DNA of 63,169 nt, counting the filler, from an uncultured bacterium (GTDB lineage: Bacteria; CAZDME01; JAYEMH01): NCBI GenBank assembly GCA_964506785.1. It is 8 parts of 8 records of this genome, joined end to end, with 100 filler letters (N's around TTAATTAATTAA, not from the genome) between each part and the next. Parts side by side here need not be neighbours in the genome. Positions count along the whole stretch, not along the records: positions 1 to 8,819 come from CAZDME010000055.1; 7 more parts are not named here. The stretch is one strand, 5' to 3'. How positions within the stretch are numbered: the first letter of the stretch is position 1; each line of letters starts with the position of its first letter. The notes under the pieces are model-generated. The model searched no databases and was not told the origin of the DNA. It saw only the letters and a program-made list of their open reading frames with translations. Below, in pieces: positions 750-56,052 of the stretch. A program made the translations under genes and the position numbers.

Positions 750-3681
<2,932 letters not shown>

Positions 3682-3688
3682 ATCTTTA

Positions 3689-4477
3689 TTATTTATTTTG
3701 ATGGAAGGTGTAGACTATAAAGCTTACCACTGTCCCGGCAAACAGGGCAAAAATTGTTATATAGATAACATAGCCGCTTTTACCTAACATAAATTTGGAG
3801 ACTCCCGAGCCTTTTTTTACCTCTTTTTTTAAATTAGAATCTTTTAAATGTGGTGGTGTAATTGTCTCGGGCGCGGTTTTTTCTGCGGGACTGAAAGCGA
3901 TCTCGTAAAGGTTTGACTGAACTGTTTTGATGAATTCCGGATTACCAAGGACAAGAAGCGGTGAAGCAATAGAGCTATTGTATTTTTTTTCTAGTGTTTT
4001 TTGAGAAGGAAGTATTTTGTTTCCCTTTTCATCCAGCCAATATTCGATTTCAGCCTCCTGGTTAAATTTCACCTCGCCAAGGGCTACCTCTTTGCCCGAG
4101 GCATCCTTTTTCACCTCTTTTATTAACCAGCTTTTGGGTTTTCCTTCCTCATCAAATTCCCAGAAGTAACGGGCTTTGATTTCTTTATTTCCGTCCATGT
4201 AATATTGCGGGATACGCTTTTTATCGCAGGCAACAATCCAAACAGTCTGTGTTTTACCCGAGGGATCTTTAATAAGATTAAAAACCCAATAGCCGGTGAT
4301 TTGTTTGGTTTTATCGAATCTCGGATGGAAAAAAATAAAGGGACGCTGCTGGTAAGTTGTCTCAAGAGCCCTCTCCTTGCCCGAGGCAAAGAAAGGGAAA
4401 AAGAGGCAAACAAAAAGGGCGGCTATAATAGAAAAAACCGCCAAATTTTTAGAGAGAAAAAAAGACCTCAAACACAT
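3689..4477 (-). CDS. Exported, C-terminally membrane-anchored protein (pilin cassette A gene 6)
   Basis: N-terminal hydrophobic segment and C-terminal TM helix; paralog of 54822..55577 (shared CDKxxxPQYYMDxNxxxKARYxW and KFMLGxxG...FIVYTFH). Confidence 0.8.
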   Translation of the reverse strand: MCLRSFFLSKNLAVFSIIAALFVCLFFPFFASGKERALETTYQQRPFIFFHPRFDKTKQITGYWVFNLIKDPSGKTQTVWIVACDKKRIPQYYMDGNKEIKARYFWEFDEEGKPKSWLIKEVKKDASGKEVALGEVKFNQEAEIEYWLDEKGNKILPSQKTLEKKYNSSIASPLLVLGNPEFIKTVQSNLYEIAFSPAEKTAPETITPPHLKDSNLKKEVKKGSGVSKFMLGKSGYVIYITIFALFAGTVVSFIVYTFHQNK

Positions 4478-4492
4478 GTGGTTTTAAAAACT

Positions 4493-4654
4493 TTACTCGC
4501 TTTCGCTCTGGGAAGAAACTTCTTCCCATCGGGTAATGCTAATTTCACTAGGAAAAACTAATGTTATTATCTTAGCCCGAACCAAAAAAATCTCCGCGGA
4601 CATCCCCCAGAGAAAAAAAGTTACAAGCAACACTTCGATAATTTTCTTAAACAT
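4493..4654 (-). CDS. 53-aa secreted micro-protein with EISITRWEE motif (cassette A gene 5)
   Basis: ATG at 4654 with GGGAG RBS; signal peptide MFKKII...VRA; paralog of 54630..54815. Confidence 0.75.
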   Translation of the reverse strand: MFKKIIEVLLVTFFLWGMSAEIFLVRAKIITLVFPSEISITRWEEVSSQSESE

Positions 4655-4677
4655 TGCAATCTCCCTTAACCGGTGTG

Positions 4678-6033
4678 TCAATTTTTTGGATGCATGATTG
4701 CCGACTCTGCTTTGTAATTTGCCGTTTTGGCTTCATCAAGCTGCTTATGTACAACCTTGCAAGCCTGAACATATTCGGTGGTGTCAATTATTCCAGCCAT
4801 ATAAGTGTCTTTCAATGACTCAAAAGATTGATATGCATAGTCCTTCTGGGTTTGGTAAACGGAGTTCACAGCCGTTAGCGAGGAAGTATAATCCCAACCG
4901 AATCCCGCCGCCGCATATTCTGTATTTGCTGTTGATACCGTCGCTTTCACGGCACTATCTAATGCGGATATTTTATTAACGGTGCTATCTACATACGTGC
5001 CAATGTCTACTACGGCACTTATGTTTTTATATCCAGCTGTATTTATGTCGTAATAAGTTCCTGTTAAAAGCCCATCCTCTATTGTGACAGAGCCATTAGC
5101 CCCTGACAGGCTGCCCAAAGCGTCTATAAGGGATGAATTATTGTTGCTTGAGACTGTTGTATAACCGGCGATATCAACCTCATCCCACCCCATCATTTCT
5201 CCGGTCTCTGGAGACATTATGCCTAAAGGGTCGCTAGCTTTCAACACAGCTACAGAGTAATCTGCGTTAAAGTCAATTAAATAGGAATTTCCATCACCTA
5301 CATCTACTCCAAGAAAGCTAGCGTCAAACATCGAGTCATCAAGAATTGACTGGGCAACGGTGTTTCCGATCGCGTACATAACAGGAAGAACGGAGTTAAT
5401 ATCCATGCCGGCCGCGAGTAATTCAATAGCCCATGTTCCCATCATCCCCGAAATGAAATTGGAATAATCAGAGTTTTGCAATGCCTCGTCATTTGTAGGG
5501 TTAAGCAGGGCGATATCGTCTGGAACTTGGCCTTCCTCGAAAATTAGTGGTGAGGAACCAGGAAGATGATTTCCGTCATCATCAACCGACCAAACCCCCG
5601 GAACAATTTTTGCTGTTCCTCCTGAATCGCTTGGAATGTACCCATAGAGAGGTGTTGGTAATGTCGGCCGGTAATCTTCCGGAATAGGCAGTTCATCTGG
5701 AAGATCAGGGTCCGGCGAATCATATTGATAGGTGTCTACCGTGAGCCGTACATCTGTTTCTATAGACCGCTCTTTACCCCGGGGGTTTTCTCCTTGAGAG
5801 GCCACCTTAAAGTTTTTATACCGCGTACCCTCTTCTTCTCCGCTGTCCAATTCTATTACCTTAACCGGGATTTCAAAATCGGCCAGGGAGCTGGTGCCTC
5901 CCAATGTAATAGTTGTCTCAACTAATACCGTCTCGGCCTTAGCCGCGCTGGCAAAGAAGAGACAAACTACACAAGCTACGGTTAAACCAAGTACACCGTG
6001 TATGAATTCTTTAATGCCCTTTTTCACTCTCAT
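4678..6033 (-). CDS. 451-aa signal-peptide protein whose N-terminal region resembles a PilX globular domain (cassette A gene 4)
   Basis: Start ATG 6033 with GGAGG RBS (ORF-track start 6150 is too long); signal peptide ending AAKA; FKVASQG...RSIETDV; paralog of 53238..54605. Confidence 0.75.
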   Translation of the reverse strand: MRVKKGIKEFIHGVLGLTVACVVCLFFASAAKAETVLVETTITLGGTSSLADFEIPVKVIELDSGEEEGTRYKNFKVASQGENPRGKERSIETDVRLTVDTYQYDSPDPDLPDELPIPEDYRPTLPTPLYGYIPSDSGGTAKIVPGVWSVDDDGNHLPGSSPLIFEEGQVPDDIALLNPTNDEALQNSDYSNFISGMMGTWAIELLAAGMDINSVLPVMYAIGNTVAQSILDDSMFDASFLGVDVGDGNSYLIDFNADYSVAVLKASDPLGIMSPETGEMMGWDEVDIAGYTTVSSNNNSSLIDALGSLSGANGSVTIEDGLLTGTYYDINTAGYKNISAVVDIGTYVDSTVNKISALDSAVKATVSTANTEYAAAGFGWDYTSSLTAVNSVYQTQKDYAYQSFESLKDTYMAGIIDTTEYVQACKVVHKQLDEAKTANYKAESAIMHPKN

Positions 6034-6078
6034 TTTATTTGCCTCCCTCCCGCTTTTCACCCTTTCATCTCCATAATG

Positions 6079-6108
6079 ATTATACCATAAAGGGAGGGGG
6101 AAAAGCAA
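6079..6108 (-). promoter_or_regulatory. Internal sigma70-type promoter between pilX-N and gene 4
   Basis: TTGCTT-N18-TATAAT with extended TGn; conserved at 53163..53192 in cassette B. Confidence 0.7.
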
Positions 6109-6115
6109 ATTTATT

Positions 6116-6325
6116 TTAGGGGTTGGCCTGTTTGATTTTCCAGAGGCCATACCGGATTCCGGCTTCCGCTAAATAGAAAGATTTAATAGAGTTAATCTCT
6201 TTATCTACGAGCTTACACTCGTTGGTTATTATCGCGAAATATGTCCCTCCGGCCAGGAAGCAAAGAAACATAAAAATTATGGCAAAAATAATTATCATTC
6301 CTTTTTTGGTCTGTTCCGCTCTCAT
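6116..6325 (-). CDS. PilX-like minor pilin, N-terminal helix only (60 aa mature)
   Basis: Class III signal KKG|MIIIF lacking Glu+5 (PilX/GspK trait); SFYLAEAGIRYG; stop after QANP. Confidence 0.8.
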   Translation of the reverse strand: MRAEQTKKGMIIIFAIIFMFLCFLAGGTYFAIITNECKLVDKEINSIKSFYLAEAGIRYGLWKIKQANP

Positions 6326-6385
6326 TTCTCCTTCCCCCGAAGCCAGTTCCCAGAAAATGCAGGCAAAGTCCTTGGCAGCGGATAT

Positions 6386-6904
6386 TCAGTTTCTTTTGTA
6401 GGCAAACGAACTTAAATCGATGCCCTGGTAACCATCCTTGGCATTTATGTCGATTATTCGAATTCGAATGTAACAGGTTGTTAACGAACCGGAAAAAATT
6501 TGGCTTTCGGGCTGAGGCCAGACGTTTTCAAGAAGAACCATTTGCCTGTCAGCATCCGGCCAGCTAGGGAAAAAGATTATCTGGTGTGTTTCAGCATCAT
6601 AGGTATATTTCATCTGGTCAGGAGGGTCTTTTTCTAGGCCGTCCAATTTAACTAAAGCAAGTGTTTTGCCTTCATCGGCTATACTTATCAATTCGCTTTC
6701 CCGTATATTGCGGCATATATGGTTTAAGGCAACCCGGCCCTGGCTCTGTAAGACAATTTGTTTGGAACCTCCACCCCAGCTTCGCTGAACGACTAAATAA
6801 CTAGCAATTAACCCGCCTATCACCAGAGAGGTAATTAAGATAGCCGTTACTATTTCTATTAAAGTCAGCCCGCTTGAGTCAAAGATTTTATTTTTCTTTT
6901 TCAT
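6386..6904 (-). CDS. PilW-like minor pilin
   Basis: SSG|LTLIEIV prepilin motif with Glu+5; long helix ending RVALNHICRNIRES. Confidence 0.8.
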   Translation of the reverse strand: MKKKNKIFDSSGLTLIEIVTAILITSLVIGGLIASYLVVQRSWGGGSKQIVLQSQGRVALNHICRNIRESELISIADEGKTLALVKLDGLEKDPPDQMKYTYDAETHQIIFFPSWPDADRQMVLLENVWPQPESQIFSGSLTTCYIRIRIIDINAKDGYQGIDLSSFAYKRN

Positions 6905-6911
6905 TTTCTTG

Positions 6912-7370
6912 TCAGTTATCTATGTCGCTAATTGCGGAAGCCAATATTTCTGTTTGGGGTTTACCTTTCCATTCCCAGGAAACACTGACAATAATACGCA
7001 GGCCCACTTGCTCTGTTTCTCCAGAGACCATCCAGGGCTCATATTTTATTTCCCGGGTACCTACTAAATCATCTTCATTCGAGTCTACGTCCGGCCCCCT
7101 ATCTATGATTACAGAATCTGATTCATCACCAAGCGCCGCAAGATCATCATAAGTAAATTTAGTCCTTTCTTCAAGAGCCTCCTGGCAAAGATGGATAGCG
7201 CTGAGGCGATGCTTAGCGTTTTTTATCCGGAGGTAGCCAAAGGAAAACATCTGAAACAAGACGGCGAAGGCGGTCAAGGTGAGAAAAATAGCGACTATAC
7301 TTTCAATTAAGGTAACGCCGGATTTGTTTTTAAGGGTGGAGTAGAAACAATATCTTCCCATCTTGTTCAC
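6912..7370 (-). CDS. PilV-like minor pilin
   Basis: KSG|VTLIESIV prepilin motif; AIHLCQEALEE; C-terminal IIVSVSW strand; AGGAGG RBS. Confidence 0.82.
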   Translation of the reverse strand: MNKMGRYCFYSTLKNKSGVTLIESIVAIFLTLTAFAVLFQMFSFGYLRIKNAKHRLSAIHLCQEALEERTKFTYDDLAALGDESDSVIIDRGPDVDSNEDDLVGTREIKYEPWMVSGETEQVGLRIIVSVSWEWKGKPQTEILASAISDIDN

Positions 7371-7447: not shown

Positions 7448-7513
7448 AGTATATCAGTAAAAAAAGGAGGGTGTCAAGAAAAATTTGACAAGGGCTAAAA
7501 AATATGGTATAGT
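7448..7513. promoter_or_regulatory. Back-to-back divergent sigma70 promoters
   Basis: Minus strand: TTGACA(7477-7472)-N18-TATACT(7453-7448). Plus strand: TTGACA(7485-7490)-N17-TATAGT(7508-7513). Both have extended TGn. Confidence 0.75.
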
Positions 7514-8736: not shown

Positions 8737-8819
8737 ATGAGTAGAATAAGTAAAGCAGGGTTAATAGTATTAATCTTAGGAGTGTTTGTTTTTACCGGAA
8801 TGGGCGGTGCTTGGGCGGA
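8737..8819 (+). CDS. Secreted protein, 3'-truncated (signal peptide only)
   Basis: AGGAGG RBS; MSRISKAGLIVLILGVFVFTGMGGAWA runs into the contig end. Confidence 0.7.
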
Positions 8820-8919
8820 NNNNNNNNNNNNNNNNNNNNNNNNNNNNNNNNNNNNNNNNNNNNTTAATTAATTAANNNNNNNNNNNNNNNNNNNNNNNNN
8901 NNNNNNNNNNNNNNNNNNN
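8820..8919. other. Artificial contig linker 1
   Basis: 100-nt N-run with central TTAATTAATTAA (stops in all six frames). Confidence 0.99.
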
Positions 8920-8986
8920 CAAAATCGGTTAAGGGATTCTGCTTATATTTTTCTGCTATTTCAACTGCTATGACATTATCATACAT
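8920..8986 (-). CDS. Hypothetical protein, 3'-truncated, downstream of the lexA-like gene
   Basis: AGAGGGA RBS; MYDNVIAVEIAEKYKQNPLTDF runs into the contig end. Confidence 0.55.
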
Positions 8987-8999
8987 ATTTGTCCCTCTA

Positions 9000-9623
9000 T
9001 TAAAATTTTGGTATTACCGTAATAACTACTCCCTGCACCTTAAAATCACGATCTAAAATAATTGGTTTATGTTTTTTATTGGTAGAACGTGGCTTAAGAA
9101 GCACCGCATTCTCAGACATTGATAACTCTTTAATCGTTACGCCATCATCAACCAGAGCAACAACCCAATCCCCATTTTTTGCTGTCTGCTGTTGCCTCAC
9201 AAGAACCAGATCGCCGTTATTGATCCCAGCCTTATTCATTGAATCGCCTGACACTTTTAAAAGAAAATGCTTTGCGTTTGGCTTCGCCAGCTTATTTGAA
9301 ACAGGAATCATGGCTTCAATATTTTCTTCAGCAAAAATAGGCATCCCGCAAGAAACAGTCCCGACTAAGGGAACATTTACTGTCTGTGCGTGAATTGAAT
9401 TGTCGCCAAGATCTATAAATTGAAAACTTCCGTTTTTTTTCTTTTTCAAAATTCCTTTGGACTCAAGTCGGTTAAACATTAGAGAAGATGATCGGGGAGA
9501 TCTATACTGCAAGGATGCCATAAGCTCACGAAGTGAAGGCAATCGCCCTTTGCTCGCAATAGCGTTCCGTATTACCTTAATTGCTTCTAACTCTTTTGAA
9601 GATAATGTTGCTTGATTGTTCAT
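9000..9623 (-). CDS. lexA: LexA-family repressor (wHTH + S24 peptidase)
   Basis: PSLREL wHTH; VPLVGTVSCG cleavage site; catalytic GDSM Ser and VTIK Lys; start ATG 9623 or GTG 9632. Confidence 0.9.
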   Translation of the reverse strand: MNNQATLSSKELEAIKVIRNAIASKGRLPSLRELMASLQYRSPRSSSLMFNRLESKGILKKKKNGSFQFIDLGDNSIHAQTVNVPLVGTVSCGMPIFAEENIEAMIPVSNKLAKPNAKHFLLKVSGDSMNKAGINNGDLVLVRQQQTAKNGDWVVALVDDGVTIKELSMSENAVLLKPRSTNKKHKPIILDRDFKVQGVVITVIPKF

Positions 9624-9671
9624 AGTATACACCAGTATACACTTTGTGAGCAGATTGTCAAGAAAATTTTT

Positions 9672-24084: not shown

Positions 24085-24981
24085 ATGGAAGAAAAAAAAG
24101 CAACAATCGGGGGAAGCGAAATTTCTATTGTGCTGGGCCTCAATAGATGGAAAACGCCTTTAAGACTTTGGGCCGAAAAGACTGGGAAAATTAAAACAGA
24201 GGATATTTCAGACAGAGAATATATACAGCTGGGGAATGAGCTTGAAGATTTTGTGGCCCGGAAATTTGCCCGGATAACAGATAAAAAGGTAAGGAGAGAT
24301 ACCAAAACATTCAGACACAAAGGCTATCCTTACATGATAGGCCATATTGACCGCCGGATTGTAGGGACCGATGAATTATTAGAATGTAAGACTTGCAATG
24401 CCTGGAAAGCTCATGAGTGGGAAGGAGACGAAATTCCTCAAGAATATATACTCCAGGTTTTATGGTATCTCGGTATTTTAGGAATGTCAAAGGGGTATAT
24501 TGCTGTTTTAATCGGCGGCCAGAAATTTACCTGGAAAGAGATTGCTTTTGATAAAGACCTTTTTGACAAAATGGTAGAAGCGGCGAAAGAATTTGTTGAG
24601 CATTACATAGAGGAAGATATAGCGCCGGTAGCGATGTCTGGTGATAGCTCAACGCTTAACAGGATATTCCCGGAGCAAAAAGAAGATATTATCCAAACCG
24701 AAGATAAAGATATAGTCGTATTACTTGATGAGCTTCAAGCTTTAAAAAGGATAATTGCTGATACTGAAAAAGAAAAAGAAGAAAAAGAAGCAAAGCTAAA
24801 ACAGAAGATAGGAGAATCAGAGGGATTGGAAACTCCTTTATATAAAGCTGTTTGGAAGGCTCAGACGTTTTCTCGCGTGGATACCAAAAAATTAAAAGCG
24901 GATGGAATCTACGATAAGTATTTAGTTGAAACACCAACAAGAGTGTTACGGATAAACAAAAAGAAGAAAGGAGATAAATAA
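24085..24981 (+). CDS. YqaJ-family viral recombinase/exonuclease
   Basis: IGGSEISIVLGLNRWKTPLRLWAEKTG, GHIDR, LECKT, YILQVLWY. Confidence 0.93.
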   Translation: MEEKKATIGGSEISIVLGLNRWKTPLRLWAEKTGKIKTEDISDREYIQLGNELEDFVARKFARITDKKVRRDTKTFRHKGYPYMIGHIDRRIVGTDELLECKTCNAWKAHEWEGDEIPQEYILQVLWYLGILGMSKGYIAVLIGGQKFTWKEIAFDKDLFDKMVEAAKEFVEHYIEEDIAPVAMSGDSSTLNRIFPEQKEDIIQTEDKDIVVLLDELQALKRIIADTEKEKEEKEAKLKQKIGESEGLETPLYKAVWKAQTFSRVDTKKLKADGIYDKYLVETPTRVLRINKKKKGDK

Positions 24982-24983
24982 AG

Positions 24984-25340
24984 ATGGCTAAGTTGAATGA
25001 AGTTAAAAAAGCAGTTACAACAACAAACAAAACAGATTTGCCGACTCTTATAAAAAATAGTGTTGGGGAGCTTAAAAAAGCATTGCCGCAACATATGAAT
25101 GCTGAAAGATTGGTTAGAATTGCCTTAACTTCTATGAGGCTCAATCCAGAATTATATAAATGCACATCAGAAAGTTTTTTGGGTGCTTTGTTTCAATCGG
25201 CCCAGCTTGGATTAGAGCCGAATATTGAAGGGCAGGCATATATTTTGCCTTTCAACAATAGGCGTAAATTCGGGGAAAGGGATTATAGAACAATTAAAGA
25301 GGCGCAGTTCTTAATTGGCTATAAAGGGTATGCAGAGCTC
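24984..25340 (+). CDS. recT: RecT-family single-strand annealing protein, 3'-truncated
   Basis: KALPQHMNAERLVRIALT, SAQLGLEP, GQAYILPF, QFLIGYKG. Confidence 0.93.
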
Positions 25341-25440
25341 NNNNNNNNNNNNNNNNNNNNNNNNNNNNNNNNNNNNNNNNNNNNTTAATTAATTAANNNN
25401 NNNNNNNNNNNNNNNNNNNNNNNNNNNNNNNNNNNNNNNN
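25341..25440. other. Artificial contig linker 3
   Basis: N-run with TTAATTAATTAA. Confidence 0.99.
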
Positions 25441-35064: not shown

Positions 35065-38000
35065 TTAACGGGCGGCTAAGAAAAGCTTGTTGAAAATAAG
35101 GGTTATTTTCTCCATTAATTTCCTAACTGCCTTTCTGACTGCATAAGGCAGTTTCTCAAAATTTTCTTCTGCCATTTCTAATTGCTTTTCCAGGTTTTTC
35201 TTTAAATCTCTATTTTCACGAATTACTTTATCCATTACCTCAGCGGCCGAAATACCTTTTACTTCCTTCTCCATCATCTTCTCATACTTCTCCTTCAGTT
35301 TATTTACGTAAGAAGCAAGCTCTGCTTTGCCCGCTTCCTTAGAATCCGATAAAGATTCCATCTTTTTACCCAGTGATTCTAAAAGCCGGGTCATACCAGA
35401 TTTAGGAGCCAAAGAGGTTTTCCCCTTCTTAGTTGCTTTTTTCTTCCGGGGCTGACGGAGAGAATTCAAAGAATCCTCCGTTTCTTCTTCAGAAATCTCC
35501 TCTTTCTCTTCCGATTCTTCAATAACCGCCGGTTTGGGCTTAACTATCTCATCAATCCTGACTGCCGGGGCCGAAATTTCTCCGGCTCTCTTTGCTTCTC
35601 CAGATATGGCGGAAAGAAAATGTGTCTTGTTTTGTTCATCAAATTCGCGTATAGCCCTGGCAATTCTATCTACGGAAATATCAGGATTCGTTATTTTTTC
35701 CTGTAAGCTTTTTATCTGGTTAAGCTTCTCGGCAACTCTCTGAAGAAGCTGGCTAGCCGCTTTTTTAGCGTCTAAAGTAGGCTTTATCTGTATAGATCTT
35801 ATATACCTTAACTTCTCTTCAACAATTTCAAGAAGGCTTTTAACTTTCTTCTTGGAAGTTGTTTCTTCCTCATTTTCGGCAGGGCTGCTGCTTCCCGCAT
35901 CTTCTTCTTCGCTTTCATCTTCAGGGGCATTAACAACGGTGGTAGAAATATCCCCCAAAGCGGGCTGAGAAATCGGCAGCTCTAAAGCCGGGTCACCAAA
36001 CAAACAATAGGTTTGAATTAAATCTTCGTAGATATTTCCTGTTTCGGCAAAAAGTTTAATCTTGGCCTGGGTGGTAGCCGCTCCCAGGGAACGGTGGTAA
36101 TCCTCAAAAACGGCCTGGAACAGGCCTTGATTTAGCACCCGATGCCCCTGCGGCTCACCCATACCCGTCGGAGACCAGCAGGCAATAGCACCTTTTTCGG
36201 CTGGCAAAAACATTGCTTCAGCCAGACAATCCCCAAAGGGCTGAATAAAGAAACCATTCAGACAATTCATGGTAATGACAAAAGGATACTTTCCCAGATT
36301 ATTGATAGATTCCAGGTGGTAGCTCTGGAAAATGTATTCTGCCGCCCAGATATCAATAGAGCCATGGCCGACGTAATTAAGTATCAAGCTCCCTTTATCG
36401 AACTGCTCAATAATATCTTCGGTGCAAGCCGCCGGCGTCTCATACTGGCTTAGATAAACCTTAGCCGTTTCATAATCAGCCGGCAGGATACTTTGAAGTA
36501 AATCGTTGGTTTCTTCAAACACTGTCTCGTCATTATCCGCCACAAAGACCACCCGTTTTTCCCATCCGGTAAAAGCAGCCGCTTCATAACTAAATATCTT
36601 ATTTACCGCCTGGGTAAGTTCTTCTTCGGTTTTGACCGAAAATCTTCCCAGAAACATATCCGGCAGTAAATCATCCTCGCCATCCAAACAGACAAACCAG
36701 TTATCACTGGCTGTTTCGCCTAAATAGGGAGTAACCATAAGATAAGAGGGCAAGATATTTTTATCCCCCCGTCCCCAATAGTATTTATAGTCATAGGTGG
36801 CATCCCCCACCAAAAGCACATAGGTAGGCGCCGGCTTCAGCCAGTATTTATATGTGAAAGTCAGAAAATCCTTAATGGCATGAGGGGAGGCAATACCAAA
36901 GTTAAACTCATCATAGATATCCTCTAATTTCACTACTTTAACCGCTAATCCCTGGGCCGCTCTTAACTCGGCTAAAGGTAAAATTTCCTCATAAAAAGCC
37001 TCCGGGGTGATAAATAGATAATCAGCCTGTTGAAAGATTACCTGCAGGCTTGACGGTTCATTTTCCTCGATTGCCGCCGCTTCTTTAATCTTATCTTCAG
37101 TTAAAGCCAGGCCTTGAGAAAAGTCAGCGGCAAAATTAAAGGTATGATTAGCGCCTTCAACCTCCACCAGGCTGGGCGCGCCCAAATAAACGGGTGAAAG
37201 GGAATTACTGATATCATAAAGTTTAACCTCTGGTTGACTGAAATTGGAAATCTGGATAGTCGCTTCAGCTTCTGAATTGGTAAAGGCGCATTCATCCTCT
37301 TCAGCCATAAATTTCTTCCAGTACTTTATATCAAAATAGTCAACCAGGATTAAATCATAGGCACAGCCGGTATCCAGCACAGGAAGAATAGTTACGGTAT
37401 TTGTCCCTTCATTAAGATAACTCTGCGGAAAATCTATGGTTAACGTTTGAACCGCGCGCCCGTCCCAGGTAGTTTCAATTAACAGATGGTCATTTAGATA
37501 AAGATAGACATGGTGATTGGGATGCGGCTCAACATCAAAAAATCCCCAGAGAACGATTTCTATCTGCGCCGGATTATCAAGATTCTCCACATCAATGTTA
37601 GCCAGGTTAAATGATATCTCTCCGCCTGAGCCGCCCCAGAAATATTTCTGCCAGAGCCAGCGCTCCTGTTCATTATCGCCGGGTTGCTCGCCCCAATAGA
37701 GGCTGTTCGTTTCCTCGTGGTGGATGGCACCGAAACTATAGAGAGGGGCGCCTAATCCCATCTGGACAGAATTTTCTTCCATCCTTAAACCCTGGCCGTC
37801 AGTATTAACCAGCCAGTAAACATTGGTATCAGTATATTTAGTTTCTTTCTTCTCTCCGTAGAATTCCACATAGTCGCTGGAAGAGAAACTTAGAGAATCA
37901 GCGCTGACCACCCGGATAGCCGTCTCTTCTCCGGATTGGTAGAGTTTAAGTTCAAGAGGATTAATTTGAGAGAGGTCTATGCCGGCCGCTTCTAAATCGG

Positions 38001-40866
38001 CTCCGGTCAGGCGGTAAATGCCGTCTTCCTTGACGGAAATTTTAGCCGCCATTTGGGCAAAACTGGCCTCAGGATTAAGCATCCCACTCCAGCCTTCGGG
38101 GAAACCCTGCCATTCAGCGGCATTGGAATAATTAGCTACCAAGTTCCCGACAATATCCTGAAATTCATCCAGTGTTTCATCGGTAACGATTTCTTCTCCG
38201 CCTTCCTGATAGGTGAATTTGAGTTTAACCTTTATCCGTTTATTCAAGGTTACTTCTTGAATGGCAGAATTATACTGAATTGGCGAGAAAATAATCTGGG
38301 CTACCCGCTGACTGCGCAGGCGGCTGATGGAATTAATATCCGCAACTGCCTCCGGATAAAGGCTGTCTTCAACAATAAGTTCTTCTCCGATAGCCGGGGC
38401 TAAAAGGTAGCCGGAATAGGAGAAGGGTTCAGTCTCCAAAATCTCCAAACTTAAAGAAGCTCTTTGGGGAACAGCTAAGAGAACACCTTTAATCGGCACT
38501 AGAGGGCGATTCTCTTCATTGGTCTCGCCATGAATATATCCGGGCAGGGTAATGCGCTGATAGGTATCTTCACCAACGGTTTTTTCTTCAACTTCAAACC
38601 TTCTGGTATATAATTCTAAGATTATGCCGTCTGCATCTAAAGAAAGAATCTTCACCCCTTCAAAAGCGCCTTCGTCTGTCTGGGTGTTAGTTCTTTCATC
38701 CCGTAAAGGACTGGTCCCGGCCAGAAATTCCTCCAAATTAGTCAAACCGTCATTATCCGGGTCTAAACTGCTGTCGCTCGTGTAAGGGTCAAGGCCGTAA
38801 AACTGCTCCCAGTCATCGGTCATACCGTCACCGTCAGAATCCTGTCCCGGACGGGCCATTACCGGGCCGTAGAATCTGGAAGAACCATTATATTCCACCG
38901 CTTCTAATTTGTAATAATAGATTTCGCCGTTTAAAACGTTGTAGTCGATATATGAATAGGATTTACCGGTAGTGGAATCTCCCAGTCCCGGAATCAAAGC
39001 CCGGTTAATCTTTATATATTCGGTGTTTTCACCCGGGTCAGTGCTTACCCTCTTTCTATAGATGTTGTATCCGGCGCTGTTAACCTCACTGGCGGTTTCC
39101 CAGATAACCTCTACCTTGCCGAAAAGGCCCAGGGCCTTAAACAGGGTTAACTTAACCAGGGTGGGCGTAAACCAATTGAGGGTGTTGCCGCCGTCAGTAG
39201 AATCAGAAGGGTTTATATAAGTGCTGTTTAAATTAGCCGAATTAGAGACGTTGACATAAGAAACACTCCAGGTAGTCGTCCCTGAAGGATAGATTTCCCA
39301 TTTGTCAGTGCCGCTTCCGTCGTAGCGGTCAAGGGTAATTTCGTTACCGGAGGTACCGGTAAGCGTCAAACTATTATCATCTGTGCCGGTTATCTTAGCC
39401 TGCTCCCAGGTTTTAAATTTCAGCGAAGAGCCGGCGGTAGCCGCCGTAAATTTTTCAGTAATAAAGCCATCGGCGAAACTAGCCGTATCGTTAGTAAGAG
39501 TAACCACTAAATGACTCCAGTTAGAACCACCCGAGGTAATTGTGCGTCCCCTAGTCCCATCAATGGTCACGGTTGAAGTGCCGCAGGTAAAGGTTCCAGT
39601 ACTGGTCCAGTCTCCAGCAGTATATATATTGGTGGCGGAAGAATCTGAAGCAAGGGTTCCGGCAAGAATCACATCGCCGTTAATATCCAGGGTAGAGCTA
39701 CTATTAAAAGTTAACTGACCTCCGGAACTGATCGTCAAATCAGGGGGATTGGCCTCACCCTCAAAGGTAATTAAACTGTCGTTGCCGGAATTGTAGGAGG
39801 CTTTAATCCAGGCGGCCGAACGAGAGATGTCAGAAATGCGGACTTCGTCTAATTTGCCATCAAGATATGCGTACCCATTTATATATCCGAGATAGTTATA
39901 CCCATCTGATGTAGCTATAGTACTACCAGAAGTTGTATCTGTTGAACCACTTGTGCCATTTGAAAACGGTGTGCCGGTGTCACCATTCCAATTAAAAGCA
40001 AAATTTCCCCAGCTAGTGGATGCTGTAGATCCTAGTATCAAATCGTTTACACCAGCATTGGTTTCCATATAGAGACTTATTGAAGAGGCAGCATCAACTC
40101 CCCAGACCCACGGAACTCTTTGCCCATCATCACCAAAAGCAATAATTCCTTGATGCCCACTAAATGGCAAACTATCTGCTTTTAACCAAAACTCAATGCA
40201 CATACCATTTTTAGCATTAAGGACTGGGTTAATAGTGATTGTATCACTACTAAAATCCTGCGCATTTCCTATTTGTCCTGATGTGATAACCTGTGGGTTA
40301 TTTGCAGAGCCTTTTGTCCCATCGTTATTATTAGAAGTAGAATCCAGAATGCTGCTTGTGGTATTATCATCCATATGGTAAACCACCTTAAAACTACCAT
40401 CCCAGACATTTTCCGCCGGGGTGGAATTTGTATCCCCTACATAGGTAGTATTATCGGCATGGTCGGAGTCATAATATAGGTAAAGAACGGTATCGCTGCT
40501 ACTGCTTACGCTATTCTCTCCGAACACCTTGACCCAGAGCCAGGCTTTCTCATTGGCATCATCCCACTTTTCAATTTCTACATAACATTGGGATAGACCA
40601 TCGGATTTAGTTACGGCTATTTTCTTGCGGTTGGCATCGGCCGTCAGCTCATCAAAAACGCAGGATACATCGACATCGCCGATACCAGAGGCGGCACTAA
40701 GATAGACCAAAACCGGGAAATCAGATAAATTTGCATCAACCTTGCTACTGTCAATGGTTAATCTGATCCGCTGGTCCCATCCAGGAAGCCAGTCCGCTTC
40801 TGCCGGAGAAGCCGCCAGCAATATAAAACCAACACAAATTGTCAATCCAACTACCCGCTTAATCAT
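35065..40866 (-). CDS. 1933-aa secreted multidomain C25 (gingipain-like) cysteine peptidase
   Basis: Signal peptide; DUF2341-like and LamG-like (DEVRIS) N-terminus; DSDGDG/DPDNDG Ca-binding repeats; DIYDEF, YVLLVGD, YVGHGS and MNCLNG catalytic dyad, LFGDPAL; charged helical tail. Confidence 0.9.
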   Translation of the reverse strand: MIKRVVGLTICVGFILLAASPAEADWLPGWDQRIRLTIDSSKVDANLSDFPVLVYLSAASGIGDVDVSCVFDELTADANRKKIAVTKSDGLSQCYVEIEKWDDANEKAWLWVKVFGENSVSSSSDTVLYLYYDSDHADNTTYVGDTNSTPAENVWDGSFKVVYHMDDNTTSSILDSTSNNNDGTKGSANNPQVITSGQIGNAQDFSSDTITINPVLNAKNGMCIEFWLKADSLPFSGHQGIIAFGDDGQRVPWVWGVDAASSISLYMETNAGVNDLILGSTASTSWGNFAFNWNGDTGTPFSNGTSGSTDTTSGSTIATSDGYNYLGYINGYAYLDGKLDEVRISDISRSAAWIKASYNSGNDSLITFEGEANPPDLTISSGGQLTFNSSSTLDINGDVILAGTLASDSSATNIYTAGDWTSTGTFTCGTSTVTIDGTRGRTITSGGSNWSHLVVTLTNDTASFADGFITEKFTAATAGSSLKFKTWEQAKITGTDDNSLTLTGTSGNEITLDRYDGSGTDKWEIYPSGTTTWSVSYVNVSNSANLNSTYINPSDSTDGGNTLNWFTPTLVKLTLFKALGLFGKVEVIWETASEVNSAGYNIYRKRVSTDPGENTEYIKINRALIPGLGDSTTGKSYSYIDYNVLNGEIYYYKLEAVEYNGSSRFYGPVMARPGQDSDGDGMTDDWEQFYGLDPYTSDSSLDPDNDGLTNLEEFLAGTSPLRDERTNTQTDEGAFEGVKILSLDADGIILELYTRRFEVEEKTVGEDTYQRITLPGYIHGETNEENRPLVPIKGVLLAVPQRASLSLEILETEPFSYSGYLLAPAIGEELIVEDSLYPEAVADINSISRLRSQRVAQIIFSPIQYNSAIQEVTLNKRIKVKLKFTYQEGGEEIVTDETLDEFQDIVGNLVANYSNAAEWQGFPEGWSGMLNPEASFAQMAAKISVKEDGIYRLTGADLEAAGIDLSQINPLELKLYQSGEETAIRVVSADSLSFSSSDYVEFYGEKKETKYTDTNVYWLVNTDGQGLRMEENSVQMGLGAPLYSFGAIHHEETNSLYWGEQPGDNEQERWLWQKYFWGGSGGEISFNLANIDVENLDNPAQIEIVLWGFFDVEPHPNHHVYLYLNDHLLIETTWDGRAVQTLTIDFPQSYLNEGTNTVTILPVLDTGCAYDLILVDYFDIKYWKKFMAEEDECAFTNSEAEATIQISNFSQPEVKLYDISNSLSPVYLGAPSLVEVEGANHTFNFAADFSQGLALTEDKIKEAAAIEENEPSSLQVIFQQADYLFITPEAFYEEILPLAELRAAQGLAVKVVKLEDIYDEFNFGIASPHAIKDFLTFTYKYWLKPAPTYVLLVGDATYDYKYYWGRGDKNILPSYLMVTPYLGETASDNWFVCLDGEDDLLPDMFLGRFSVKTEEELTQAVNKIFSYEAAAFTGWEKRVVFVADNDETVFEETNDLLQSILPADYETAKVYLSQYETPAACTEDIIEQFDKGSLILNYVGHGSIDIWAAEYIFQSYHLESINNLGKYPFVITMNCLNGFFIQPFGDCLAEAMFLPAEKGAIACWSPTGMGEPQGHRVLNQGLFQAVFEDYHRSLGAATTQAKIKLFAETGNIYEDLIQTYCLFGDPALELPISQPALGDISTTVVNAPEDESEEEDAGSSSPAENEEETTSKKKVKSLLEIVEEKLRYIRSIQIKPTLDAKKAASQLLQRVAEKLNQIKSLQEKITNPDISVDRIARAIREFDEQNKTHFLSAISGEAKRAGEISAPAVRIDEIVKPKPAVIEESEEKEEISEEETEDSLNSLRQPRKKKATKKGKTSLAPKSGMTRLLESLGKKMESLSDSKEAGKAELASYVNKLKEKYEKMMEKEVKGISAAEVMDKVIRENRDLKKNLEKQLEMAEENFEKLPYAVRKAVRKLMEKITLIFNKLFLAAR

Positions 40867-47341: not shown

Positions 47342-47342
47342 T

Positions 47343-48575: not shown

Positions 48576-48675
48576 NNNNNNNNNNNNNNNNNNNNNNNNN
48601 NNNNNNNNNNNNNNNNNNNTTAATTAATTAANNNNNNNNNNNNNNNNNNNNNNNNNNNNNNNNNNNNNNNNNNNN
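48576..48675. other. Artificial contig linker 6
   Basis: N-run with TTAATTAATTAA. Confidence 0.99.
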
Positions 48676-51884: not shown

Positions 51885-51913
51885 TTGACACCTGCCTTAT
51901 ATGCCGATATAAT
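51885..51913 (+). promoter_or_regulatory. Consensus sigma70 promoter of pilin cassette B
   Basis: TTGACA-N17-TATAAT. Confidence 0.8.
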
Positions 51914-51934: not shown

Positions 51935-52384
51935 ATGGGTAAGTATTTTTTTAAATCCTTATTTAAACCTAACTCCGGCGTCACCTTAATTGAAAGTGTT
52001 GTCGCAATTTTTCTCACCTTGACCGCCTTTGCCGCCTTGTTTCAGATGTTTTCCTTTGGCTACCTCCGGGTAAAGGGGGTAAAAAACCGCCTCAGCGCTA
52101 TCCATCTTTGCCAGGAGAAAATGGAAAGTCTCCTTGACCTACCCTATACATCCATTGCTCTTTATTCCCAAACCCAGGAAGAAGTAACAATAGATTACGG
52201 GGCCGATTCTTCTTCAGATGAAGATGACCTGAAAGGCACCCGCACTGTCCAGACACTGGAGGATTGGATAGTTGATGAAGAGTTGGTTGGCAAGAAAGTT
52301 ATTATCACCGTTGCCTGGAAACGGAACAATAAAGATTTAAGCGAGACCCTGATTACCGCCGTTTATGACGGCCATAACCAATAG
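51935..52384 (+). CDS. PilV-like minor pilin (cassette B gene 1)
   Basis: NSG|VTLIESVV; paralog of 6912..7370. Confidence 0.82.
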   Translation: MGKYFFKSLFKPNSGVTLIESVVAIFLTLTAFAALFQMFSFGYLRVKGVKNRLSAIHLCQEKMESLLDLPYTSIALYSQTQEEVTIDYGADSSSDEDDLKGTRTVQTLEDWIVDEELVGKKVIITVAWKRNNKDLSETLITAVYDGHNQ

Positions 52385-52390
52385 GTTAAA

Positions 52391-52912
52391 ATGAAAAGAA
52401 ACGAAACCCTGTTAAAGAAAATACCTCAAGGAATGGCAGGTTTCACCCTGGTAGAAGTAGTCATTGCTATCATTGTTGTCACCCTGGTTATCGCCGGCCT
52501 GATAGCAAGTTATCTGGTTATTCAGCGCAATTGGCAGGGCGGCTCAAAGCAAATAATTGTCCAGGGGCAGGGCCGGCTGGCTTTAAATCATATCTGCCGG
52601 CACATTCGGGAAGCAAGCAATCTCGGAGTATCAAACCTGGGCAGAACCCTGGTCATAATTCGGCTGGATGGAGGTAGCCTTGCTTATAAATATGATGAAC
52701 AGAGTCATACCTTGAATTACTACCCTGATTGGTCAGATCAGACTTCCAAGGAAGTACTGGTCAATAATCTGTATAAACAGCCGGGTAACCCAATTTTCCT
52801 AAGAAGCGGCTCCCGGAAAGTATATATTCACTTTAGAGTGATAGACGTAAACCAAATAGACGGCTATCAAGGGATAGACTTGTCCTCTTCTGCTTACAGC
52901 CGGAATATGTGA
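52391..52912 (+). CDS. PilW-like minor pilin (cassette B gene 2)
   Basis: MAG|FTLVEVV; shares DGYQGIDLSSxAYxRN C-terminus with 6386..6904. Confidence 0.82.
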   Translation: MKRNETLLKKIPQGMAGFTLVEVVIAIIVVTLVIAGLIASYLVIQRNWQGGSKQIIVQGQGRLALNHICRHIREASNLGVSNLGRTLVIIRLDGGSLAYKYDEQSHTLNYYPDWSDQTSKEVLVNNLYKQPGNPIFLRSGSRKVYIHFRVIDVNQIDGYQGIDLSSSAYSRNM

Positions 52913-52930
52913 TAAAAGGAATCAATAAAG

Positions 52931-53155
52931 ATGCCTGCCTCAGGAATAGAAGCAAAAAAAAGGCAAAAAGGGATGGTAGTAATGTTGGTTATCGTTTTCA
53001 TGTTCCTTTGTTTCCTGGCCGGAGGGACATATTTAGTGGTAGTCACCAATGAATGCCGGCTGATGAAGAAAGAAATAGATTCTATAAAGGCCTTTTACCT
53101 CTCTCAAGCGGGAATAGAATACGGCCTCTGGCAGATAAAAAAGCAAAACCCTTAA
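52931..53155 (+). CDS. PilX-like minor pilin, N-terminal helix only (60 aa mature; cassette B gene 3)
   Basis: QKG|MVVML lacking Glu+5; AFYLSQAGIEYG; stop after KQNP. Confidence 0.8.
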   Translation: MPASGIEAKKRQKGMVVMLVIVFMFLCFLAGGTYLVVVTNECRLMKKEIDSIKAFYLSQAGIEYGLWQIKKQNP

Positions 53156-53162
53156 ACTAAAT

Positions 53163-53192
53163 TTGCTTTTAGCCCTTCCTTTATGGTATAAT
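53163..53192 (+). promoter_or_regulatory. Internal sigma70-type promoter
   Basis: TTGCTT-N18-TATAAT; TTTATGGTATAATCATTATGGAGA is identical to cassette A. Confidence 0.7.
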
Positions 53193-53237
53193 CATTATGG
53201 AGAAAAAGGGTAGAGAAACAAAGGGGAGGCAAATAAA

Positions 53238-54605
53238 ATGAGGACAAAAAGGGGTAGTAAAAGGGTAATAAAAAGTGTATTATTTTTAAGCTTAGCCAGT
53301 GTAGTATGTATCTTCTTTGTCAATTTGGCTGAAGCCGCTGAAATCCAGCATTATACGATACCTCCCTTAGCAAAAGGCACCGCCCCGATTGAGGTAGAAA
53401 TAAAGGTAAAGACCGATTGGCTTGATGCTCAAGGAGAGCCCTGGACAGGCCCTGAAGCTGGAGATAGACATAAGTGCTTTGAAGTGAAAAGTAAAGGCCA
53501 AGATATTTCAGGGAAAACAGCAAAGCACACTAAAGTTGACACGGAACTGGCTACATCTTTCGATAAAGTTATCGTGCCGGATGACTTTCCGCCTAATCCT
53601 GATCCCCCGCCAGGTCCTGCACCTGCTCCTAATGTCTGGTTAATGCCCCAGCTTGTTAGCGCGAACTACATGCAGCCTGAAATCTTGGCTGTTTCAGCTA
53701 CTGCTTTATCAAATATGCGTTGGTGGGGTGGAGACCCTTTTAGTGCTAATATAGACCCTTTAATCGACAGAATTTACTTTGAGTCTGAAGTAGACGGAAA
53801 TTACGAAAGAATATGGGAAACTCCCTTGGGTTGGACAAGACCTTCTGATTTTGATCAAAAGAAAAACGAGACAATACAATATTTAAAAGAAAACGGTTAT
53901 GATTATCTGCCTCAATCTACATTAGGAACTATTGCCGAAGATGCGGTTGATTGGTCTCAAAGTTATTTTTCGGAGGATCATCCGCTATTAGAAGAGGAAC
54001 GAAGTCTCGGTGTTATGCCGGCACGTTATTATAGATTGCCCGATGGAACTCAAATCATATTTAATTTCAGGACAGACTATAGTGCTGCGGGACAACTCTA
54101 CATCCCCACCTCAACCGACCATGTTGAAGACGTAGCCCAGGGGGCCAATCTTGATAAATATGCGGGGGTAACAAGTCTAGACGCAGGCGATATGAAAAAT
54201 TCCCCGCAACAGACGACACCTCAAGAAACATTACCAGCTACCCGAGAAGAGGAACAGACAGCTATGATAATGCAAGCCCTGCAAGCAGCAGCAAATTATC
54301 AACCGAGACAAAGCGTACAAGAAACATTTTCTGAAAAAAGTTCCAGTGGCACCACTTATTATAGCCCTAGTAGTTCTTCTTCTGCTTCCAGCAATCCCAG
54401 CGCAACAACTCCTGTAGTAAATTCTTTAGCAATCGGCCTATCCAGTCTTTTCCAAAATGGCACGATTCAAAAAAGTTCCAGTGGCACTTATTATAGCCCT
54501 AGTAGTTCTTCTAGCTTTACTTCTTATGGTAATGCTACCTCTTCTGGCAGCACTGGTACTAGAACGAACCTCTATGATAGAACGAACCCTTATAGATTTT
54601 GGTAA
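53238..54605 (+). CDS. 455-aa signal-peptide protein with PilX-like globular region and Ser-rich tail (cassette B gene 4)
   Basis: GGAGG RBS; signal peptide ending AEA; FEVKSKG...TKVDTEL; Pro-rich linker; duplicated KSSSGT(T)YYSPSSSSS. Confidence 0.78.
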   Translation: MRTKRGSKRVIKSVLFLSLASVVCIFFVNLAEAAEIQHYTIPPLAKGTAPIEVEIKVKTDWLDAQGEPWTGPEAGDRHKCFEVKSKGQDISGKTAKHTKVDTELATSFDKVIVPDDFPPNPDPPPGPAPAPNVWLMPQLVSANYMQPEILAVSATALSNMRWWGGDPFSANIDPLIDRIYFESEVDGNYERIWETPLGWTRPSDFDQKKNETIQYLKENGYDYLPQSTLGTIAEDAVDWSQSYFSEDHPLLEEERSLGVMPARYYRLPDGTQIIFNFRTDYSAAGQLYIPTSTDHVEDVAQGANLDKYAGVTSLDAGDMKNSPQQTTPQETLPATREEEQTAMIMQALQAAANYQPRQSVQETFSEKSSSGTTYYSPSSSSSASSNPSATTPVVNSLAIGLSSLFQNGTIQKSSSGTYYSPSSSSSFTSYGNATSSGSTGTRTNLYDRTNPYRFW

Positions 54606-54629
54606 TCTTGAAGAATAAGGTGCATTAAG

Positions 54630-54815
54630 ATGTTAAAAAAAATAATAACCGTGCTTATTTTAGCCTTACTTTTCTGGGGATTATCTTCAGAAATTTCCCG
54701 AATTTGGGCTAAAGTTGTATATATACGCGGGGATACTGAAATCAATATTACCCGCTGGAAAGAAATCGTTCAATGGAACGAAGAAACTGACGAAGAAAAA
54801 CTATCCTCTAACTAA
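54630..54815 (+). CDS. 61-aa secreted micro-protein with EINITRWKE motif (cassette B gene 5)
   Basis: Signal peptide MLKKII...IWA; paralog of 4493..4654. Confidence 0.75.
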   Translation: MLKKIITVLILALLFWGLSSEISRIWAKVVYIRGDTEINITRWKEIVQWNEETDEEKLSSN

Positions 54816-54821
54816 ATCAAT

Positions 54822-55577
54822 ATGGCTAAATTAAAACAGAAAAGAGGAAGCAACTTGAAAAATGCTTCCTTATTTTTTTTGATTATTATAACCTTCCCTT
54901 TTATCTTTCTGGCTAAAGGCGAAACAGCTACTTTTAAAAGAAAACCCACCAGTCCAGAATACTCTACTATCACCCTATGCATACCAAATGAGAAAGGCAA
55001 TATCGTTAACTTCTGGGTAGAAGACTTAGTCAAAGATGATTCTGGAAAATCAAAGATTATCGGAATAATTGTTTGTGATAAAAACGGCCTACCCCAATAT
55101 TATATGGATGAAAACCAAAAGGTAAAAGCCCGCTACCTCTGGCAATCGGATGCTCAAGGCAATTTACAGAATCTAAAAATAGTGGAGGTAGAAACGGCCG
55201 CTGAAGGCAAAGAAATCGTTACCAAAAGCTGGAAATATGATTCTGAGGGGAAACTGGAATATCGGACTGATGCTGAAGGCAAAATAATAAAACCTTTAAA
55301 AGAAGAAGTTTCTTTCGATCCTCCACGCGAAATGGAAATCTTAGATAACACCAAAATTATTGCCCAAACAATTCCCGAGAGACATAAAAAGATAGAAAAC
55401 AAGAAAGAAAAAACTTCTTTAAAAAATAAGGATTCTTTATTGCAAGCAAAAAAACGCTATCCCTTCCCCAAGTTTATGCTTGGTCAAACCGGGTTCATTA
55501 TCTATGTAGCGGTTTTTGCTCTTTTTGCCGGAGCGGTGGTGGGTTTTATAGTTTATACTTTCCATAGCAGTAAATAG
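54822..55577 (+). CDS. Exported, C-terminally anchored protein (cassette B gene 6)
   Basis: Paralog of 3689..4477. Confidence 0.8.
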   Translation: MAKLKQKRGSNLKNASLFFLIIITFPFIFLAKGETATFKRKPTSPEYSTITLCIPNEKGNIVNFWVEDLVKDDSGKSKIIGIIVCDKNGLPQYYMDENQKVKARYLWQSDAQGNLQNLKIVEVETAAEGKEIVTKSWKYDSEGKLEYRTDAEGKIIKPLKEEVSFDPPREMEILDNTKIIAQTIPERHKKIENKKEKTSLKNKDSLLQAKKRYPFPKFMLGQTGFIIYVAVFALFAGAVVGFIVYTFHSSK

Positions 55578-55858: not shown

Positions 55859-55951
55859 ATGCAAATCTGGCAAAATAAAAAATCAATATTTAGAATAATT
55901 GCTTCAGCAGCAATATTTCTCTTTATTCTATCCCAGACAGAAATTGCCTGG
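55859..55951 (+). CDS. Secreted protein, 3'-truncated (signal peptide only)
   Basis: MQIWQNKKSIFRIIASAAIFLFILSQTEIAW runs into the contig end; AGGA RBS. Confidence 0.65.
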
Positions 55952-56051: not shown

Positions 56052-56052
56052 A

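Follow-up and report, generated by a model that had tools for sequence, protein, structure and literature searches.

Introduction

Tip minor pilins set what a type IV pilus binds and prime its assembly. The question raised here is whether a pilin of this kind can be encoded and exported in separate pieces, as is suggested by a 63,169-nucleotide stretch of DNA (the window; 8 parts of 8 records joined with filler letters) from an uncultured bacterium, assembly GCA_964506785.1. The window carries two paralogous six-gene cassettes, cassette 1 at 3689-7370 on the minus strand and cassette 2 at 51935-55577 on the plus strand, which have diverged to 35-61% protein identity and share the gene order pilV-like, pilW-like, short prepilin-type open reading frame (ORF), gene 4, gene 5, and gene 6. 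In a preliminary description, the short ORF was taken as a PilX-like pilin that ends after its helix, and gene 4 as a Sec-exported protein supplying the missing beta-sheet.

Two known kinds of system come close to such an arrangement, namely, tip pilins of the ComZ/PilX type with an inserted domain and the fission of the Geobacter major pilin. ComZ carries a solenoid between its penultimate and last strands, according to the available part of PMC6561018, and the accessible text of PMC13759059 describes cyanobacterial solenoid-bearing PilX pilins with a large extra domain after the penultimate strand and the last strand at the very end. For Geobacter sulfurreducens PilA-N and PilA-C (GSU1496/GSU1497), the accessible parts of PMC5174107 and PMC10710030 report a gene fission located in the loop that follows the helix; in the portions available of PMC10191384 and PMC10710030 the term gene fission also concerns TadB/TadC-type platform proteins of Tad pili. 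No split, truncated, or fissioned minor pilin was found described in the literature searched, with subscription papers and supplements outside it, which agrees with the preliminary description, and a split tip minor pilin would be a variant of these two known kinds.

Results

A helix-only pilin in both cassettes

The short ORFs are as follows (a slash marks the predicted cleavage site here and below; aa, amino acids; HMM, hidden Markov model):

6116..6325, minus strand: helix-only tip pilin (PilX-N / ComZ-N) of cassette 1, 69 aa, MRAEQTKKG/MIII...KQANP (ORF; family HMM)
52931..53155, plus strand: helix-only tip pilin of cassette 2, 74 aa, ending KQNP (ORF; family HMM)

Both proteins start with class III (prepilin) leaders, ...TKKG/MIIIFAIIFMFLCFLAGG and ...RQKG/MVVMLVIVFMFLCFLAGG, which are short and basic with Gly at -1 and about 20 hydrophobic residues next. 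After the leader Gly, 60 residues follow in each, with NP at the end, exactly as the preliminary description had it. The paralogues are 61% identical and lie directly after the pilV-like and pilW-like genes; these neighbours have Glu at mature position +5 in both cassettes, a position occupied by F (cassette 1) and L (cassette 2) in the short proteins. The stop falls 13 residues past an AEAG motif in both cassettes, and in the AlphaFold2 (AF2) model of a 148-aa family member (P0014) the helix ends 10 residues past this motif; therefore, the cut sits at the border between helix and head.

The family of the helix was established with profiles run against the 995 stop-to-stop frames of the window. 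An HMM of 11 fused relatives retrieved the short ORFs of cassettes 1 and 2 with E 6.3e-19 and 7.2e-19, and a 90-sequence family profile containing no window sequence gave E 7.6e-21 (cassette 1, positions 4-66 of 340) and 1.4e-21 (cassette 2), the two together covering only positions 3-67. The same profile matches Thermus ComZ (6qvi) with E 5.7e-18. The P0014 model (predicted local distance difference test, pLDDT, 93.4) superimposes on ComZ with Z 11.1 and a root-mean-square deviation of 1.8 over 89 residues, on a chain of the XcpGHIJK pseudopilus model with Z 9.9, and on a Streptococcus sanguinis minor pilin with Z 9.0; Foldseek by itself links the model to ComZ with E 0.04. Pfam PilX_N (PF14341) was listed at E<=1 neither for the two short ORFs nor for the fused 538-aa protein introduced below. 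The PilX-like identity proposed earlier holds in that the helix belongs to a family of ComZ/GspK-like tip pilins, and this family is better named ComZ/GspK-like than after the Pfam entry.

Relatives of the helix are, as a rule, longer proteins. A helix-alignment profile search of 1.84 billion representatives returned 11,915 proteins (E<=1e-3). Among the 150 best-scoring ones, 137 have lengths of 104-642 aa, and 11 others that are shorter than 100 aa extend past the helix or end oddly, are perhaps fragments, and were excluded as split forms. Scanning species genomes with the pilW-like pair yielded a single syntenic locus (L001, in a Nitrospirota metagenome-assembled genome), with the order pilM/pilN, pilin, pilV-like, pilW-like, and a fused 538-aa protein whose first 65 residues correspond to the short ORF, with 42% identity across 43 aa (E 5e-8). 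When the helix alignment was run against 13 genomes of that phylum, 13 matches in 8 genomes were obtained. The open frames that hold 11 of them span 329-539 aa; the other two, of 144 and 136 aa, encode complete pilins of 130 and 125 aa that include a beta-sheet. The helix-only form accounted for none of the 13 matches across these 13 genomes, and fused forms, which the preliminary description had suggested looking for in related genomes, do occur there, at 125-539 aa. Acetate kinase of the window is 54-59% identical to that of 4 of the 13 genomes, which does not fix the kinship.

In two loci of the same phylum, L016 (1691-2740, minus strand) and L018 (1682-3118, minus strand), the pilin at the pilW position is enlarged to 349 and at least 478 aa, and the PilX-type pilin of these genomes is compact (130 and 125 aa); therefore, the large extra sequence is there on the pilW-position pilin and not on the PilX-type pilin.

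The break is conserved and under selection

The stop and spacer of cassette 1 are spanned by contigs (not raw reads) of four runs from four studies, which show point differences only and zero indels. Cassette 2 was found again on two further metagenome contigs, L002 and L003, both of which encode a protein identical to its short protein. Helix-only proteins are known from five sequences of three types (the two of the window, P0005, P0154, and P0155), each of which has a mature length of 60 residues and NP at its end; P0005 and P0154 lie on contigs of 1,631 and 841 bases. Between the paralogues, the short ORF has the lowest rate of nonsynonymous change (dN) among the six cassette genes, 0.234 against 0.415-0.648 for the others, with synonymous change (dS) saturated, indicating purifying selection.

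The short ORF and gene 4 are out of frame with each other in both cassettes. In cassette 1 the gene 4 frame is open upstream, crossing the spacer and reaching the last part of the short ORF, and that of cassette 2 meets a stop inside the spacer; therefore, recoding into one chain is unsupported. The preliminary description had argued that the shared break point speaks against pseudogenisation or sequencing error, and the contigs and the low dN bear this out. Because the relatives are fused open frames, the helix-only end is shared, no indel occurs in the four runs, and dN is lowest, the short ORF is, on sequence grounds, a real split gene under selection. Ordinary ComZ/GspK/PilX-type pilins carry the beta-sheet head in the same chain as alpha-1, and the short ORFs do not; since the head is cut off and the four runs are free of indels, the short pilin is filed as a split derivative and not as an ordinary family member.

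Gene 4 combines a constant N-domain with a replaceable C-domain

Gene 4 encodes 451 aa in cassette 1 (4678-6033, minus strand) and 455 aa in cassette 2 (53238-54605, plus strand), and was divided into the following parts:

5935..6033, minus strand: Sec-type signal peptide of gene 4, cassette 1, residues 1-33, ...SAAKA/E (read by eye: basic n-region, hydrophobic core, AXA)
5734..5934, minus strand: constant N-domain of gene 4, cassette 1, residues 34-100, candidate pilin beta-sheet (AF2, profiles)
4678..5733, minus strand: Pro-rich linker and C-domain of gene 4, cassette 1, residues 101-451, no relatives found (Pfam, protein search, Atlas model)
53238..53654, plus strand: signal peptide, constant N-domain, and Pro-rich linker of gene 4, cassette 2, residues 1-139 (block shared with L002)
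53655..54605, plus strand: strain-variable C-domain of gene 4, cassette 2, residues 140-455 (no DNA similarity to L002)

The protein starts with MRVKKG or MRTKRG, followed by a hydrophobic core and AKA/E or AEA/A, and has its own ribosome-binding site (RBS). This basic-hydrophobic-AXA leader, read by eye, is conserved in both cassettes, so the Sec-signal protein proposed in the preliminary description does follow the short pilin. A lipoprotein or prepilin reading of the leader was considered and rejected, as there is no lipobox and charged residues stand after the Gly.

The paralogues of gene 4 are alike only over the first 93 aa (39%). An AF2 model of the N-domain, built from three sequences, has three antiparallel strands (mature residues 24-34, 37-49, and 55-66; pLDDT 52.6), and the mature N-terminus of cassette 1, L-G-G-T...FEIPVKV...FKVASQG...RSIETDVRL, parallels the family pattern LG.G.Y.V...I.S.G...R.I.V. 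The full profile places the cassette 1 N-domain at positions 75-120, right after the helix at 3-67 (E 0.7, rank 4 of 995 frames), and a structure-guided profile of strands beta1-4 aligns to it over positions 6-53 of 54 (independent E-value 0.85), both scores being non-significant. The summed lengths of short pilin and gene 4 product, 69+451 and 74+455, are near the 520-538 aa of fused forms. A complex prediction for short-pilin residues 10-69 with gene 4 residues 34-112 gave scores of 0.01 and 0.02 (mark 0.32), which weighs neither way. A conserved disulfide between the pieces was rejected, the Cys of the cassette 2 N-domain being absent from cassette 1 and L002.

Searches for relatives of the complete gene 4 product gave little. 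Word-index protein searches recovered the L002 variant and otherwise just the query sequences, cassette 1 gene 4 finding itself alone; the ESM Atlas model of gene 4 (pLDDT 0.47) gave no usable match; and the fused L001 protein showed no similarity to either gene 4 product in a BLASTP comparison (E>=0.3). Pfam at E<=1 assigned no family to the short ORF, gene 4, gene 5, or gene 6.

The comparison with the sister strain represented by L002 separates two parts of the gene. DNA identity is 99.2% up to about codon 139 of gene 4, just past the proline-rich linker; beyond it there is no DNA similarity for the rest of the gene, which encodes a different C-part of 286 residues, and identity resumes at about 79% across genes 5-6. 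Over residues 1-139, dN between cassette 2 and L002 is 0.038 and dS 0.183. The sister strain has kept the first ~139 residues and replaced the whole C-domain, and the putative tip module is exchangeable. This constant N-module with a C-domain replaced between strains fits the variable tip domain on a constant helix that the preliminary description had proposed.

Similarity between the window and L002/L003 begins abruptly at about 48676, and 2,240 upstream bases of L002 are unmatched in window positions 46000-48675. This boundary may reflect another rearrangement between strains or, alternatively, masked sequence.

The spacer between the two pieces

The short ORF and gene 4 are separated in each cassette by a conserved spacer:

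6034..6115, minus strand: conserved 82-nt spacer, cassette 1 (paralogue alignment, fold)
53156..53237, plus strand: conserved 82-nt spacer, cassette 2, with a stop in the frame of gene 4 (paralogue alignment)

The spacer is exactly 82 nt long in both cassettes, with 67 of 82 positions identical and 44 of 48 at its start, and the DNA around it is less conserved (~72% identical). The motifs TGGTATAAT and GGGAGG are kept in both copies. As to the conserved promoter and RBS proposed earlier, these two motifs are indeed conserved, whereas the -35 candidate, TTGCTT, has only 3 of 6 consensus matches, and because of this weak element the spacer site is unlisted in sigma-70 scans of both cassettes. 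In addition, the upstream half of the spacer can pair with the RBS as a hairpin (consensus fold -15.6 kcal/mol, one compensatory pair), and the fold has z-scores of -1.66, -1.82, and -4.15 relative to shuffles. The spacer may equally well hold an internal promoter of the extended -10 type or form a hairpin that would mask the gene 4 RBS on read-through transcripts, and these readings are not mutually exclusive.

Genes 5 and 6

Gene 5 is a small gene directly downstream, present as:

4493..4654, minus strand: gene 5, cassette 1, 53 aa from MFKK, hydrophobic N-terminal segment, ...EISITRWEEV, candidate last beta strand (alignment, HMM)
54630..54815, plus strand: gene 5, cassette 2, 61 aa, ...EINITRWKEI (alignment, HMM)

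The motif EI.ITRW[EK]E[VI] occurs in all three versions of gene 5, and a W.[EDQ] strand, e.g., SIVSWQEIY, closes the chain in 95 of 140 family members. With a 14-position last-strand profile, the gene 5 frames ranked first and second of 995 (E 0.19 and 0.46); hhalign paired SITRWEEV of gene 5 with SIVSWQEI of the family (E 0.023), and the full profile places gene 5 at positions 321-336. As judged from these profile positions, the gene order is co-linear with the fold: helix at 3-67, cassette 1 N-domain at 75-120, and gene 5 at 321-336. That gene 5 carries the last-strand motif of the family hints at a three-way split, which is a lead, not a result.

Gene 6 follows in both cassettes:

3689..4477, minus strand: gene 6, cassette 1, 262 aa, hydrophobic N-terminal segment, YD-repeat-like middle, C-terminal membrane helix (alignment)
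54822..55577, plus strand: gene 6, cassette 2, 251 aa, C-terminal membrane anchor (alignment)

Its versions, including that of L002 (8331-9107), are 34-35% identical and share a near-invariant FMLG..G..IY...FALFAG.VV.FIVYTFH tail. Structure neighbours are weak and of the RHS-repeat type (template-modelling score, TM, <0.4), and the Atlas model (pLDDT 0.54) gave no usable match. Between strains, gene 6 diverges faster than the flanks (79% versus 99% DNA identity).

Cassette surroundings and other features of the window

The remaining elements of the cassettes are:

7448..7477, minus strand: promoter-like site upstream of the pilV-like gene, cassette 1 (TTGACA-18-TATACT, TG before the -10; 11/12, consensus match only)
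6912..7370, minus strand: pilV-like minor pilin, cassette 1, 152 aa, G/VTLIE with Glu+5 (ORF)
6386..6904, minus strand: pilW-like minor pilin, cassette 1, 172 aa, G/LTLIE (ORF)
51885..51913, plus strand: promoter-like site, cassette 2 (TTGACA-17-TATAAT; 12/12, consensus match only)
51935..52384, plus strand: pilV-like minor pilin, cassette 2, 149 aa (ORF, Pfam scan)
52391..52912, plus strand: pilW-like minor pilin, cassette 2, 173 aa (ORF, Pfam scan, paralogue comparison)

The pilV-like pilin of cassette 1 scores 17.7 bits with N_methyl, under the Pfam cut-off of 21.2, and its position equals that of the 138-aa pilin in locus L001. The pilW-like pilin of cassette 1 is 52% identical to its paralogue and 29% identical to the 177-aa L001 gene that precedes the fused tip pilin. 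A DciA gene (750-1076, plus strand) is located between dnaN and gyrB (1093-3681, plus strand), with a LexA gene close by (9000-9632, minus strand), and cassette 1 therefore lies near the replication origin; GyrB is long (862 aa), with additional sequence between the Toprim and C-terminal domains.

Elsewhere in the window, a DegT/DnrJ/EryC1-type aminotransferase gene (56107-58188, plus strand), the 5' part of which adjoins an N stretch, contains an intein (Intein_splicing E 1.1e-21) that carries a LAGLIDADG endonuclease domain (LAGLIDADG_3 E 3.3e-15). In a 1,933-aa protein (35065-40866, minus strand), Peptidase_C25 of the gingipain type (E 2.9e-94) is combined with the propeptide of this domain and Laminin_G_3. 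At 24085-25388 (plus strand), a YqaJ-like exonuclease gene is followed by a 134-aa RecT-family ORF spanning only the first third of the RecT model; a phage recombination module may have left this remnant. The N stretches at about 8790-8920 and 55950-56100 each cut into an ORF with a signal-peptide-like start.

Discussion

A helix piece followed by a separately secreted, strain-variable protein looks like a split, swappable pilus tip. The explanation favoured here, with slightly better than even confidence, is that each cassette encodes the priming/tip complex of a type IV pilus in which a tip pilin of the ComZ/GspK/PilX type has been split by gene fission. The first piece would be the 60-residue alpha-1 helix with its prepilin leader, held in the inner membrane and cleaved by prepilin peptidase. 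The second, the Sec-exported gene 4 product, would replace the pilin head with its constant ~70-residue beta N-domain, packing on the C-terminal half of the helix, and its proline-rich linker would hold the ~320-residue C-domain where relatives carry the inserted beta-solenoid; this C-domain would be the exposed tip module exchanged between strains. Gene 5 may provide the last beta strand, which follows the inserted domain in ComZ-type pilins. Together with the pilV-like and pilW-like pilins, the reassembled pieces would place a swappable binding domain on the pilus tip. A stronger version, in which the tip pilin is laid out in three genes with three export signals (helix; strands 1-4 plus variable domain; last strand in gene 5), is possible, though doubtful. 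If it is true, assembly of the head would take place in the periplasm, with an exchangeable tip domain at its centre, and strains or paralogous cassettes could redirect the pilus to new targets by exchanging no more than the middle part of the fold.

Several observations weigh against this explanation. The N-domain model is of low confidence (pLDDT 52.6); the beta1-4 profile leaves the cassette 2 N-domain unlisted, and the 11-sequence HMM does not list the gene 4 N-domain at E<=10; other comparisons of this domain with the beta part of the family are non-significant (E 4.2; hhalign E 0.39 and 0.51); and gene 4 of cassette 2 scores in the full profile via its C-part and not its N-domain. For gene 5, the match is short (8-9 residues, E 0.02-0.5) and was spotted by eye before the test, and because its leader lacks a clean AXA site across the three versions, the product may stay in the membrane. 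Moreover, no pilus machinery genes lie beside either cassette or elsewhere in the window. Regarding the earlier proposal that the first ~70 residues of gene 4 are the missing beta-sheet, the alignment of FKVASQG..RSIETDV with I.S.G...R.I and the three modelled strands are in its favour, whereas the pLDDT and the E-values (0.39-4.2) are not; the assignment is plausible but unproven.

The most serious rival, though still rather unlikely, is that the short protein is a headless, helix-only minor pilin, and gene 4 an unrelated Sec-exported adhesin of the PilY1/PilC kind with an N-module docking on the PilV/W-like pilins, e.g., by beta-strand augmentation. Gene 4, with its Sec leader, stands at the pilY1 position of pilVWXY1 operons, its N-domain is without significant similarity to the family sheet, and a constant N-module with a variable C-domain would fit an adhesin equally well. 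Non-pilin PilC/PilY adhesins dock on core minor pilins by strand augmentation through a short conserved strand and are carried by them at the tip, as far as the available part of PMC13711793 describes. However, gene 4 has no Pfam match (E<=1) to PilY1/PilC or to anything else, its conserved docking part is N-terminal and not a C-terminal tail, and in relatives a single chain comprises both the head and a large domain. On this reading it would be pure coincidence that the order is co-linear, that the lengths add up, and that I.S.G...R.I stands where the profile expects it.

A looser arrangement, in which genes 4-6 form an independent variable surface or secreted unit with its own spacer promoter, unrelated to the pilus, and the short pilin is a tolerated remnant, is considered improbable. 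It would account for the conserved TGGTATAAT in the spacer, for the lack of recognisable families among genes 4-6, and for the L002 variable block, which spans the C-domain of gene 4, the divergence of genes 5-6 also exceeding that of the flanks. The same six-gene order in paralogous cassettes at 35-61% protein identity and a spacer of exactly 82 nt in both speak against it, and the lowest dN and the same end in three sequence types are unexpected for a tolerated remnant. Pseudogenisation or faulty assembly as the cause of the break, or a single chain made across it through programmed frameshifting or readthrough, is very improbable and already contradicted: the open gene 4 frame through the cassette 1 spacer would suit it, but that frame has a stop in the cassette 2 spacer, the ORFs are out of frame in both cassettes, the short-ORF stop is unchanged in the indel-free contigs of four runs and four studies, and gene 4 has a start, RBS, and signal peptide of its own, conserved in both cassettes.

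The split tip pilin favoured here resembles ComZ (6qvi) and cyanobacterial PilX in its alpha-1 family, GspK-like fold, lack of Glu+5, and position after pilV/pilW-like genes. It differs in that a break follows the helix, and a second one may precede the last strand, with separate export signals on the pieces, and in that the large domain is no recognisable solenoid and differs between paralogues and strains. With GspK (XcpX) it shares a tip subunit without Glu+5 and the fold of a family member (the Z of 9.9 to an XcpGHIJK chain), whereas GspK is a single chain with an alpha-helical insert elsewhere in the sheet, as stated in the accessible part of PMC6561018. In Geobacter, too, a ~60-residue helix-only pilin is followed by a gene with its own signal peptide, the product of which forms the globular head. 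PilA, however, is the major, filament-forming pilin, with a head of 104 residues, and the case described here would concern a single-copy tip pilin, likened to it by layout; the variable domain on the second piece here is large, and there may be a third piece. Assembly of the pieces is known from cryo-electron microscopy in Geobacter and only inferred here. The likeness to PilY1/PilC is that of a large Sec-exported protein encoded after minor pilins; the absence of a PilY1/PilC domain, the N-terminal conserved part, and the headless PilX-type pilin next to it set gene 4 apart.

A natural tip pilin made in this way would help annotation pipelines, in which all three pieces are currently left unnamed. 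If the proposed explanation is true, periplasmic reassembly of a pilin fold can accommodate a foreign domain in its midst, and the two-chain principle of Geobacter would extend from the filament body to the tip; the arrangement would also be a natural template for the display of chosen domains on pilus tips. It would further explain how, in an uncultured lineage with small genomes, pilus specificity may change by the replacement of a segment of one gene.

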